A stretch of 64,000 bases of DNA from the NCBI RefSeq assembly GCF_056746865.1, contig NZ_CM163382.1. One strand, given 5' to 3'. Positions within the stretch are counted from its first letter, which is position 1. Each line of letters begins with the position of its first letter. Positions 51,539 to 55,090 of this stretch are shown in pieces. The position numbers were made by a program, and so were the translations under genes. Below the pieces are notes generated by a model. It made no database searches. It was not told the origin of the DNA and saw only the letters and a program-made list of their open reading frames with translations.

Positions 51539-52025
51539 TGAAGTGGTCAACAAAAACTGGCCACCGCGTTAGAGTTTTTCCAGTATCGGTTTTCTGATTC
51601 GTTTGGCGGTAACCCACCGTTATATTCGTGCGGTCTTTGTGCGCTGTAATATCCAACGATATAGTCCGTTATTGCGTGAGCTGCATCGCTGAAGCTTACA
51701 TAGCCCGTCGCCGGCACCCATTCGTTCTTCAGACTTCTGAAGAAGCGTTCCATTGGGCTGTTATCCCAGCAATTTCCGCGCCGGCTCATACTCTGCCTGA
51801 TCTGGTATCGCCACAATAACTGCCGGAACTGCCTGCTCGTATAATGACTGCCCTGATCGCTGTGGAACATCACCCCGCCGGGCTTACCACGGGTTTCCCA
51901 TGCCATTTCCAGCGATTTCATGGTGAGCCTGCTGTCCGGCGAGAACGACATGGCCCAGCCCACTGGTTTTCTTGCGAACAGGTCGAGAACAACGGCGAGG
52001 TACGCCCAGCGCTTACCCGTCCAGA
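51539..52025 (-). mobile_element. IS911-type IS3-family segment (terminal repeat plus OrfB C-terminal exon), 3' exon of the group II intron
   Basis: Terminal repeat tgaagtggtcaacaaaaactggccacc at 51539; OrfB C-terminus (DDE region, [21 protein letters not shown]) continues in frame across the intron junction. Confidence 0.65.
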
Positions 52026-52076
52026 GTAGAGTAAGAGGCAGGGCGTAGTCGGACTATTTCCCTGCCTCTCCTCCCC

Positions 52077-52110
52077 GAACCGGACGTGCACCTTTCAGCG
52101 CATCCGGCTC
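52077..52110 (-). ncRNA. Group II intron domain V
   Basis: Minus-strand gagccggatgcgctgaaaggtgcacgtccggttc fits the 34-nt domain V hairpin with the catalytic AGC triad and GAAA loop. Confidence 0.7.
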
Positions 52111-52115
52111 TCCAT

Positions 52116-53639
52116 TTAAATGCTGGCGAACGCCATTGCCACTTCTGTAAAGCGCGATGTATACGTGTTTCTGGTCTCCGTCCTCAGATAGGGATTACCT
52201 TCGGGTAGCCGCCAGCGGAACAGCTTCTTGCCTTGCCCCACCAACCGGTACAGTATTTCGCCGCTGAGCTTGCCGTGATTGGTTTTACCAAATAAAACCC
52301 ACGTTTTGCTCTGACCCGGTTTCGGTGATTTACACCACCACCTCATCAGGGAAGCGATACCTGTACGGTATTTGCGGGCCAGCCAGTGAGCCAGCTTCCA
52401 GAACACGACACGGTCGATATAACTGAAGACTTTGGCCTTAAAATCAACGAACTGATAGAACATGGCCCAGCCTTTCAGTTTTCGGTTGAGTTGTTCAGCC
52501 ATATCGACTTTGCTTTCACTGTAGTTGCCTGATAACAGTGCTGTCAGCGATGCGGCGAAGTTTCTGGCTTTCTCCTGCGGGATCGTTGAGACCACTCGCA
52601 TCTCGCCATAACGACTGCGTTTGCGAATGATCCTGTGCCCCAGAAAGATAAAGCCGTCATTAACATGGGTGATTTTAGTCTTATCCATGTTCAGCCTGAG
52701 TTTCAGACTGCCTTCGAGCACACCCCGACACTCCTCCCTGATGGCTTCCGCCTGTGCTTTGGTGCCTTTGACGATGAGGACAAAATCATCGGCATAGCGG
52801 CAGTACGCCACCGCGGGTTTCCACTGCCAGTTTTCTCTGACCGCCGTACTTCGGCCCCGTTGGATACTGTTATTCCAGTACCACCGATCTTTTCTGGCTT
52901 TCCCGCTCAGGTAGCGCTCATGCAGGTATTGATCGAACTCATTCAGCATGATGTTCGATAATAGCGGCGATATAACACCGCCCTGTGGCACACCTTCACT
53001 GGCCGCCCGAAAGAGACCGACATCGATATGTCCCGCCTTGATGGTTTTCCACAGCAGAGTCATGAAACGTGCGTCACTGATCCTGCGGCGTACAGCCTTC
53101 ATCAGCAGTCGATGATGTACGGTGTCGAAGTAACTGGACAGGTCGCCTTCAATCACCCAGCGTCCCCGGGTTTCACCACAGTCTGTGAGCTGTAATTTCA
53201 CCGTGCGGATCGCGTGGTGGACACTGCTCTCAGGCCGGAAGCCATATGAGAGCGTATGAAAATCACTCTCCCATATCGGCTCCATCGCCATCAGCATGGC
53301 CCGCTGAACAATACGATCCCGCAACGCGGGGATACCCAGTGGTCGCAGTTTGCCGTTGCTTTTAGGGATGTAAACCCGTCTGGCGGGCAAGGGCTGGTAG
53401 TGGCCTGAGAGTAATTCATCCCTGAGGATTTGCAGCTCAACAGCCAGTCTGGCCTGTAGCATTGTTTTGTTCACGCCATCAACGCCGGGGGTATGGGCCC
53501 CCTTTGATGAAAGCGTGATCCGCGCCGCTTCAGCCAGCCATTCTGGTTGTGTTATCAGACGCAGCAGCCGTTGAATCCGTAGGGACGGATCGGTGGCTGC
53601 CCATGTGGCAAGCTTGCGTTGCATTTCGCTGATTATCAA
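52116..53639 (-). CDS. Group II intron reverse transcriptase/maturase
   Basis: 507 aa; RT motifs including YADD (CRYADDFVLIV), maturase-like C-terminal region. Confidence 0.88.
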   Translation of the reverse strand: MIISEMQRKLATWAATDPSLRIQRLLRLITQPEWLAEAARITLSSKGAHTPGVDGVNKTMLQARLAVELQILRDELLSGHYQPLPARRVYIPKSNGKLRPLGIPALRDRIVQRAMLMAMEPIWESDFHTLSYGFRPESSVHHAIRTVKLQLTDCGETRGRWVIEGDLSSYFDTVHHRLLMKAVRRRISDARFMTLLWKTIKAGHIDVGLFRAASEGVPQGGVISPLLSNIMLNEFDQYLHERYLSGKARKDRWYWNNSIQRGRSTAVRENWQWKPAVAYCRYADDFVLIVKGTKAQAEAIREECRGVLEGSLKLRLNMDKTKITHVNDGFIFLGHRIIRKRSRYGEMRVVSTIPQEKARNFAASLTALLSGNYSESKVDMAEQLNRKLKGWAMFYQFVDFKAKVFSYIDRVVFWKLAHWLARKYRTGIASLMRWWCKSPKPGQSKTWVLFGKTNHGKLSGEILYRLVGQGKKLFRWRLPEGNPYLRTETRNTYTSRFTEVAMAFASI

Positions 53640-54295
53640 AGGTCTTCACCTCGTTAGGTCAGTTAATTCACGTCGCAAACACATTCAAACTGCTTCCCTT
53701 CGCCATGTAATGGGCTTTCCCCATCGCGGACTACTACGGAAGCTCCGCCAGCCAGCGCGTCATCGGAGCCATGCCCCCTTAACATCCGTCGCTGACCTTC
53801 CCCGGTTTACCGGCCTGGACTCAGGCATACTGAGGAGGCTGCCCGTCGCACTCTTTATCCTTGCTTGCCGCAAGTTGGCAGAAGTCAGCAATGCAAGCGT
53901 GATAGACGCTGCTGCCCCGGTGTTTCGCATACATGTCAAAACACCTTCGACCGGCAGTGCTTACGTATCACTGCCAGTTCCTCCTGCACGGCCTGTCAGA
54001 TCACGTAGGCCGTGGTGACGTTTTCAACCCACAGAGGCGGATTAACGGGTTCATGTTCTTCAGCCTTTCAGTACTTAACCTTGAGGATCATCTCGGCTTA
54101 GTGATCTCGCCTCAATCCCCGTTGTCAGCGGGTTACATCACCCTGCGGGCATGCCGCAGGTCACTGCCGCTCAGGTTCTCCACCGTCACACCCGGTGGGA
54201 TTGTTGGGTTTCTCATCGTGAGTTACCGGTTCAATATTCCAGACAGACTCGCGGTTCATTTAAGCATCCATGCCCGCCCTGAACTCCGGGCACAC

Positions 54296-55090
54296 CGTAA
54301 GTAAAATCAGCCACCCACAACTGGTCAGGACGTTCTGCCACAAACTGACGGTTTACGCGGTCGCCTGCGGCAACGGCTTTCCGGCTGACGGTAGTGCGGA
54401 CCTTTTTACCCCGGAGAACACCGGCAAGTCCCATAACCGCCATGAGGCGCGCCACTGTACATCTGGCTACCCTGATTCCTTCCCGTAACAACTGACGCCA
54501 GACTTTACGCACACCGTATACCTGATGATTCCCATCGTATACGCGCAGTATCTCTTTCTTCAGCCAGTCATCGCGCTGCGCACGGGCACTGCGTTTATCA
54601 GGATGATGTCGCTGTTGCTGACAGTGGTAATACGTTGACGGGGCAATATGTAGTTCACTGCATACCGGTCCGACCCCGTACAGCTTACGCAGCTTATCCA
54701 GCAGTGGCATCACTTTTTCCAGAGGCGGTCGAACTCCACCTTCGCAAAATAAGCGGAAGCCTGGCGAAGGATATCGTTACTGCGGCGCAGTTCACGATTT
54801 TCACGTTCCAGCTCTTTCAGACGCTGACGTTCAGCGGTGGTGAGCCCGCCATCACCGCCTCCGGTATCCCGCTCATGCTGGCGCACCCAGACACGCAGAG
54901 TCTCCGGTGTACAGCCAATCTTTGGGGCAATGGAACAAATTGCCGCCCACTGTGAGTCATATTCGCCCTGACTTTCCAGAACCATACGAATCGCCCTCTG
55001 ACGGACTTCGGGGGAAAAACGAGTATTTTTAGTCATTCTGTTTACCTCTTTCTCAGGGAGTTTAGTCTCCAGGATTCCCGGGGCGGCTCA
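54296..55090 (-). mobile_element. IS629-type IS3-family segment (terminal repeat, OrfA, OrfB N-terminal exon), 5' exon of the group II intron
   Basis: Minus-strand terminal repeat TGAGCCGCCCCGGGAATCCTGGAGACTAAAC ending at 55090; OrfB N-terminus [13 protein letters not shown]...QLWVADFTY ends at the intron. Confidence 0.7.
54710..55036 (-). CDS. IS629/IS1203-type transposase OrfA
   Basis: 108 aa [41 protein letters not shown]... Confidence 0.8.

Follow-up and report, generated by a model that had tools for sequence, protein, structure and literature searches.

Positions 51539-55090 of the window, as we call the whole 64,000-nucleotide stretch of contig NZ_CM163382.1 (RefSeq assembly GCF_056746865.1) that was analysed, are occupied on the minus strand by a hybrid insertion sequence (IS) with exactly defined limits: an IS629-type 5' half, the group II intron E.c.I4, and an IS911 3' half. 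We consider it highly probable that this hybrid is the scar of homologous recombination inside the intron, between a copy that resided in an IS629-type element and a copy that resided in IS911. The original prediction for this stretch, made from its letters alone, had proposed recombination between two intron-bearing IS copies, and comparison with database genomes supports that proposal: both kinds of parent exist, mirror-image hybrids exist, and a hybrid without the intron does not occur among the complete Escherichia coli genomes that were searched.

The two halves belong to different insertion sequences

Three elements served as references (comparison loci carry L numbers): an intact 1248-bp IS911 (L002:740-1987, 'IS911 family' in the annotation of the Prokaryotic Genome Annotation Pipeline, PGAP) and an intact 1310-bp IS629-like element (L004:4501-5810), both from annotated E. 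coli genomes, and a second IS629 reference, the IS629-family copy (PGAP) in L006, which carries the same intron and is flanked by the 3-bp duplication CTT. The 5' half (5' exon, 795 bp, 54296-55090, minus strand) is 99.5% identical to the L004 variant (4501-5295) and 94.7% identical to the L006 copy, against 49.5% identity to the IS911 of L002 in a global alignment. The 3' half (3' exon, 487 bp, 51539-52025, minus strand) is 96.7% identical to IS911 (L002:1501-1987), against 48.9% to L004 and 48.4% to L006, and its last 40 nt, the right inverted repeat (IRR) at 51539-51578, are identical to the IRR of IS911 in L002, so the IS911-type terminal repeat proposed for this side was correctly read. 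Aligned to both references, which was the check originally suggested, the halves fall to different IS types, and to the types that had been named.

The outer end of the IS629-type half begins with a left inverted repeat (IRL) that runs from 55090 downward (TGAGCCGCCCCGGGAATCCTGGAGAC...); it reads TGAGCCGCCCCGGGAATCC... and, apart from G in place of A at position 4, agrees with the IRL of the intact variant. The orfA of this half (54710-55036, minus strand, from the list of open reading frames) encodes 108 aa in the same frame as the orfA of the intact IS629 variant, and together with the IRL and the 99.5% identity it bears out an IS629-type 5' side with terminal repeat and OrfA. The programmed-frameshift pseudoknot of the IS3 family (ALIL) is recognized at 54639-54755 (minus strand; Rfam RF01497, 111.7 bits, E = 5e-29). 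The 5' half is also approximately 95.6% identical to copies annotated as 'IS1203 family'. Isoforms in ISfinder are by convention about 95% identical or more in nucleotide sequence. Judged from the alignments, the 5' half, approximately 95% identical to the named isoforms, appears to be a separate member of the IS629/IS1203 group; the L004 variant itself is unnamed.

Taken as a whole, the hybrid is not a complete IS629, having the 3' half and the IRR of IS911 and no target duplication, and it is not a complete IS911 either, its 5' half being only 49.5% identical to that element. Nor does it have the properties of an autonomous IS: cognate ends and a duplication are both absent, and copies at other loci are made from different IS variants. 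The two termini have only TGA in common and are not inverted repeats of each other, as had been noticed at the outset, and the triplets beside the hybrid are ACC and GTG, without target duplication. The coding sequence, by comparison, is continuous across the intron. The last residues encoded by the 5' half, ...LWVADFTY, belong to the N-terminal part of orfB, and the 3' half is the C-terminal part of an orfB with the protein tail ...NSNAVASFC*, as in IS911. Spliced exons form a single frame (...RPDQLWVADFTY up to the junction, then 17 residues directly after it and onward to ...ASFC*), and the join at ADFTY|VWTGK is the in-frame junction at the conserved motif of IS3-family OrfB that had been expected.

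The change from one element to the other coincides with the intron

The position at which one IS gives way to the other can be read to within a few nucleotides. The 5' exon is of IS629 type up to position -1 (TTTACTTACG, vs GTGACCTATA in IS911) and the 3' exon is of IS911 type from position +3 onward (TCTGGACGGG, vs TCAGCACATGG in IS629), which places the exchange inside the intron or in the 3 nt next to it. IS629-type and IS911 elements are approximately 49% identical overall, and the intron (2.27 kb, >99.5% identical between copies) is the sole homology that they share.

A hybrid that existed independently of the intron should be visible as a direct junction of the exons. We therefore compared a query made of 300 bp of each exon, joined directly, with 5,426 complete E. 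coli genomes. A contiguous intron-less IS629/IS911 hybrid was found in none of them, all 12 of the 12 apparent matches consisting of two pieces 0.5-0.75 kb apart, and no IS that naturally has both of these ends was found in this set.

Parents and other hybrids

Both parental arrangements are present in database genomes. A complete IS629 with the intron is found in L006, between the two copies of its CTT duplication, and the IS629 variant with the intron occurs on IncF plasmids, in L021 and as a shortened copy in L005. Complete IS911 elements with the intron are common in E. coli genomes, L015 being one example. In strain E8 (L016) such an element stands at the same junction between lactate module and IS911 IRR as in the window, with later insertions of IS1203 and IS30, and from its sequence this arrangement would be the expected IS911-side parent. 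The lactate module is also found with an IS911 fragment on plasmids.

Hybrids are likewise not confined to one place or one direction. A query constructed as the mirror image (IS911 5' half, intron, IS629 3' half) was matched end to end in many genomes, at no fewer than two loci (at least L010, beside capU/virK, and L011, beside pic, where the IS911 part also carries IS30). Hybrids with the polarity of that in the window occur elsewhere on IncF plasmids and come from different IS variants: in L019 an IS629-variant 5' half is joined to a near-canonical IS911, and in L020 the 5' half is that of canonical IS629. Intron-bridged exchange is thus recurrent, in both polarities. The reciprocal chimera, which had been proposed as the sign of an inversion, does exist in E. 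coli, but at the unrelated loci L010 and L011, so that an inversion is left unsupported; within the 64-kb window there is no reciprocal chimera, only weak 181-bp matches at 34.7 and 42.5 kb.

The plasmid hybrid in L020 has AAC on both sides (2486-2500 and 6053-6067), which resembles a 3-bp target duplication. We rejected this as evidence of transposition and take the match for a coincidence: the left flank lies inside the orfA of another IS3-family element, and the right flank lies in the sopC repeats.

The intron and its target site

The intron (2270 nt, GTGTG...CTAC, 52026-54295, minus strand) lies in sense orientation within orfB, with limits that were set by comparison with the intron-less IS629 variant and with IS911; its ends agree with the group II consensus of GUGYG at the 5' side and AY at the 3' side. 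Its domains V and VI (52026-52112, minus strand) give a match of 64.9 bits to Rfam RF00029 (gathering score 40) that covers the full model, 1-77, and ends at the last intron base, the 3' splice site being after base 52026. The intron-encoded protein (ltrA, 52116-53624, minus strand, 502 aa from ATG) is an intact reverse transcriptase and maturase: the frame is open, without a stop codon and with the variants S133 and R247, and Pfam recognizes RVT_1 (7.9e-34) and GIIM (1.3e-10) only, with no HNH/En endonuclease domain. In the closest database genomes (L001:12778-14286 and L009:23578-25086) ltrA carries the nonsense change W29* and is a pseudogene according to PGAP. This change is absent from the window, and an 'internal stop' in ltrA, as annotated by PGAP, was rejected as a feature of the window; it belongs to those genomes. 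The window therefore comes from a lineage where the intron copy may have remained active. Specifically, because the catalytic domains and the reverse transcriptase/maturase frame are intact and the intron lies in the sense direction, it may have kept the ability to splice and to be a donor for retrohoming. Splicing would yield an in-frame hybrid orfAB transposase mRNA.

The intron known as E.c.I4 or S.f.I1 was reportedly described by Dai and Zimmerly in 2002 from IS3-family transposase genes of E. coli and Shigella. The window intron is 99.7-99.8% identical to the copies in L006 (in IS629), L010, L011 (O104:H4, beside pic) and L015 (in IS911), the value for the pic/SHI-1 copy in L011 being 99.7%. 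The SHI-1 copy of strain 55989 is E.c.I4-3a (Leclercq and Cordaux, 2012, Table S2, PMC3522654), and E.c.I4 copies occupy a specific site within the transposase gene in each of IS629, IS911, ISEc16 and ISEc31 (Leclercq and Cordaux, PMC3522654). Because the L011 copy fits the description of E.c.I4-3a, and because the published host ISs and the published site are the ones occupied here, the window intron can be identified indirectly, by way of L011, as E.c.I4. This intron is of bacterial class A, with a reading frame that has no D/En region (PMC3552965), and the Pfam result without endonuclease domain agrees with that assignment. The window copy shares with E.c.I4/S.f.I1 its sequence, the site after the D(F/V)TY codon of orfB, the sense orientation, and a reverse transcriptase and maturase without endonuclease; it is no different in kind, and is marked only by its intact frame, by S133 and R247, and by three nucleotide changes private to its lineage.

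UGUGGGU (intron nt 263-269, window positions 54027-54033, minus strand) is the sole site in the first 700 nt of the intron that pairs with both exon ends through G-U wobble, the last 7 nt of the 5' exon being ACUUACG in IS629 and ACCUAUA in IS911. Going by complementarity, this is a plausible exon-binding site 1 (EBS1), which would account for the dual target. The same chromosomal IS911, located between a DUF2254 pseudogene and the ythA/nanY side, contains the intron in strain 222 (L015:1501-5018) and is without it in strain E597 (L002:740-1987). From this filled and empty pair it follows that the E.c.I4 family is mobile and retrohomes into resident IS911.

Island context and distribution

A genome was counted as carrying the hybrid when one place in it matched 80% or more of the element together with its 200-bp flanks, a score reachable only by the hybrid. 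By this count approximately 281 complete E. coli genomes carry it, and 40 match the whole 9.5-kb stretch including the flanks at 99.7-100%. Because the hybrid is present in this many genomes, its junction is an old one, inherited with a genomic island, and not a rearrangement of this particular genome. The hybrid region lies within an island bounded by an integrase.

The two sides of the hybrid behave differently. The right-hand flank is constant and consists of the 3' remnant of an IS1414 (IS256 family; 55091-55917, plus strand) that was interrupted by the IS629-type insertion; the remnant is 97.7% identical to an intact IS1414 (L012:1802-2628) and is recognized by NCBIfam as an IS256 transposase. 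The junction of hybrid and IS1414, followed by a sucrose/raffinose module, is common to approximately 205 genomes. The left-hand flank is the variable one. In the window an L-lactate permease gene and a spacer resembling repetitive extragenic palindromes (REP) abut the IS911 IRR (49564-51538, plus strand), the flank switches exactly at the IS911 terminus (51539), and the lactate-utilisation module stands beside the hybrid in only 40-51 genomes. In many other genomes (such as L007:1-9000 and L008:1-9000) it is a methylation-associated defence system (MADS) island that meets the hybrid at the same base. A MADS island beside a complete IS911 with the intron gave no full-length match, the search returning IS911 with the intron at other loci.

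Within the IS911 half, strain APEC O2-211 (L007:9001-9484, corresponding to window 51619-51925) has 17 clustered differences, including a 3-bp deletion, and it hardly differs from the window across the intron and 8 kb of flank to the right. From its sequence this patch looks like gene conversion from another copy of IS911.

IS629-type insertions into IS1414 are also found on other replicons, at L013:6407-7716 (with the duplication TAC, 3 bp away from the insertion point seen here) and at L014:4887-6197 (15 bp upstream). We considered these two loci, the only contiguous matches, as the ancestral insertion of IS629 into IS1414, or as the reciprocal junction, and rejected them as independent insertions 3 bp and 15 bp away. 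The occurrence of independent IS629-type insertions within approximately 20 bp suggests a local hot spot in the IS1414 transposase gene.

Farther away in the window, a 2464-bp direct repeat (99.6% identity) is present at 33576-36039 and 41408-43871, each copy containing an IS5-family (ISKpn26-like) transposase reading frame and an IS3-family reading frame. The repeats enclose a molybdopterin reductase cluster of the dmsA/dmsB type with a NapF-like ferredoxin (36040-41407). The closest genomes, L001 and L009, have a single copy of the repeat and no dms cluster, and from this comparison the dms module looks to have been gained or lost by recombination between the repeats.

Origin of the hybrid

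The observations can be accounted for by a simple sequence of events. E.c.I4 retrohomes into a single conserved position of orfB, the codon that follows the ...D(F/V)TY motif, and this position is present in several otherwise unrelated IS3-family elements, including IS629-type elements and IS911. With the intron in both ISs, its 2.27 kb would become the only long stretch in which they are nearly identical, and a crossover inside it, presumably dependent on RecA, would join the IS629-type 5' half to the IS911 3' half. The same crossover would have brought the flanks together, connecting the IS1414 remnant and the raffinose/sucrose module to the lactate-utilisation module, and the reciprocal product would have been lost, either as a deleted circle or with a partner on another replicon. 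The hybrid would then have been inherited and spread with the genomic island, and further exchanges at its IS911 end would have swapped the left flank in some lineages, a MADS island taking the place of the lactate module. This is the order of events that we infer. As for the kind of rearrangement, the original prediction allowed a deletion or an inversion breakpoint: a deletion, or an exchange with a plasmid or an island, is the more likely, whereas the inversion lacks a reciprocal partner. It is the failure to find the expected reciprocal junction that leaves an inversion unsupported and makes a deletion or an exchange between replicons likelier. Because the ends of the hybrid are not cognate and the right flank is fixed across approximately 205 genomes, the product is likely inert, and as an IS it is most likely immobile.

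Several points weigh against recombination inside the intron. The searches recovered neither an IS629-side parent at the exact IS1414 position nor the reciprocal junction (5' part of IS1414, GGT, IS629 IRR). Approximately 76 of the approximately 281 hybrid genomes gave no score for the IS1414 junction, and either the lactate or the MADS flank may be the ancestral one. Copies of the intron vary at only approximately 15 sites (ten copies from different contexts), so the crossover point cannot be located, and the hybrid lineage has private alleles, 404A, 484C and 1068A, in place of a mosaic of parental ones. The dependence on RecA is assumed.

The alternatives differ in the order of events or in the agent that joined the halves. 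A hybrid IS629/IS911 element might have existed first, either as an IS that naturally has two different ends or as a recombinant between ISs, and have received the intron by later retrohoming; an element of this kind would retain the target motif of the intron, and the orfB of the present hybrid is indeed in frame. However, two elements that are approximately 49% identical offer no homology for a crossover, the crossover would have had to land, as a coincidence, no more than 3 nt from where the intron sits, not one of the 5,426 genomes has a contiguous intron-less hybrid, and hybrids of both polarities and from different IS variants all switch at the intron. This order of events is largely refuted, and we think it very unlikely. 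An error of assembly or scaffolding could also join two intron-bearing IS copies, repeats of 3.5 kb being a classic cause of misjoins in short-read assemblies, but the approximately 281 independent complete genomes with the hybrid, 40 of which match over 9.5 kb at 99.7-100%, already refute this explanation, and its probability is practically nil.

Retrohoming itself might instead have made the hybrid, if RNA of an intron from an IS629 donor reverse-spliced into IS911 and a template switch during cDNA synthesis or repair joined donor and recipient. The intact reading frame of the intron-encoded protein, without endonuclease domain, and the recurrence of hybrids fit such a route. Introns of this type are believed to rely on priming at replication forks, which might link retrohoming to strand exchange. 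If the retrohoming machinery does make hybrids, E.c.I4 would actively fuse unrelated ISs together with their adjacent modules and drive the mosaicism of genomic islands. In a weaker variant of this reading, the in-frame hybrid transposase might be made and be active on one or both ends. But the IS629 part continues through a complete IRL into the IS1414 remnant and then into 8 kb of island DNA, and this points to the joining of two loci at the level of DNA, not to a cDNA tract that ends at the 5' end of a transcript; moreover both polarities occur, as expected for a reciprocal DNA crossover, and a sequence signature specific to this route was not seen. We therefore regard an origin by retrohoming as improbable. 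There is also little to recommend the view that the hybrid is a composite mobile element, transposing as a unit with a hybrid transposase or one acting in trans. It is true that the hybrid is found at three or more distinct loci (at least the island, L019 and L020), that the spliced orfAB is in frame, and that one plasmid copy has AAC on both sides. Against this, the termini share only TGA, four of the five loci examined have no matching flanks, and the flanks in L020 (the interior of an IS orfA and the sopC repeats) do not form a single sequence that was interrupted; the copies at the different loci are made from different variants of IS629 and IS911, which argues for independent formation and not for the spread of one element, and the right flank is fixed in approximately 205 genomes. 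Transposition as a unit is accordingly most improbable.

Relation to known systems and significance

Two chimeric hosts of E.c.I4 have been listed previously, a 'chimeric IS629/IS911' for E.c.I4-3a in the SHI-1 island of E. coli 55989 and a 'chimeric IS629/ISEc31' in IAI39 (Leclercq and Cordaux, 2012, Table S2, PMC3522654). The same authors argued that tandems of intron and IS favour ectopic recombination (Leclercq and Cordaux, PMC3522654), and the chimeras are only noted there, with neither a mechanism nor a survey (Leclercq and Cordaux, 2012, PMC3522654). Our hybrid resembles these hosts in that a copy of E.c.I4 has exons from different IS3-family elements, an anatomy that is shown by L011. 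The SHI-1 copy differs in that an IS911 5' half, split by IS30, is combined with an IS629 3' half at another locus; the window copy has the opposite polarity, with an IS629-variant 5' half and an IS911 3' half, and stands at the raffinose/lactate junction of another island. The intron, its IS targets and its chimeric hosts are thus already known, and the window copy is a further instance.

Dispersed repeats such as IS elements, rrn operons and group II introns, for example in Wolbachia, give rise to deletions, inversions and replicon fusions by ectopic recombination. The present case is alike in that crossing over takes place in a long, nearly identical dispersed repeat and produces hybrid flanks (discussed in PMC3522654), and it differs in that the repeat is nested in two carriers that are not homologous. 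For this reason the outcome is an IS that can be seen to be hybrid and whose ends do not match, and not a repeat copy of normal appearance.

What the survey adds is that hybrids of both polarities are widespread, that they arose repeatedly, at separate loci and out of different IS variants, and that none occurs without the intron. A remark of 2012, made only in a supplementary table, is thereby extended; nothing is overturned and no long-standing question is opened. For annotation it means that the pair of 'IS3 family transposase' pseudogenes on either side of ltrA makes up a single hybrid element. In a widespread E. coli island the hybrid shows where two modules meet, with raffinose/sucrose genes beside lactate-utilisation or MADS genes. 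In more general terms, a retroelement that targets a conserved motif in unrelated ISs supplies them with 2.3 kb of shared homology, and thereby makes recombination possible between elements that are otherwise not homologous, and between the DNA adjacent to them.

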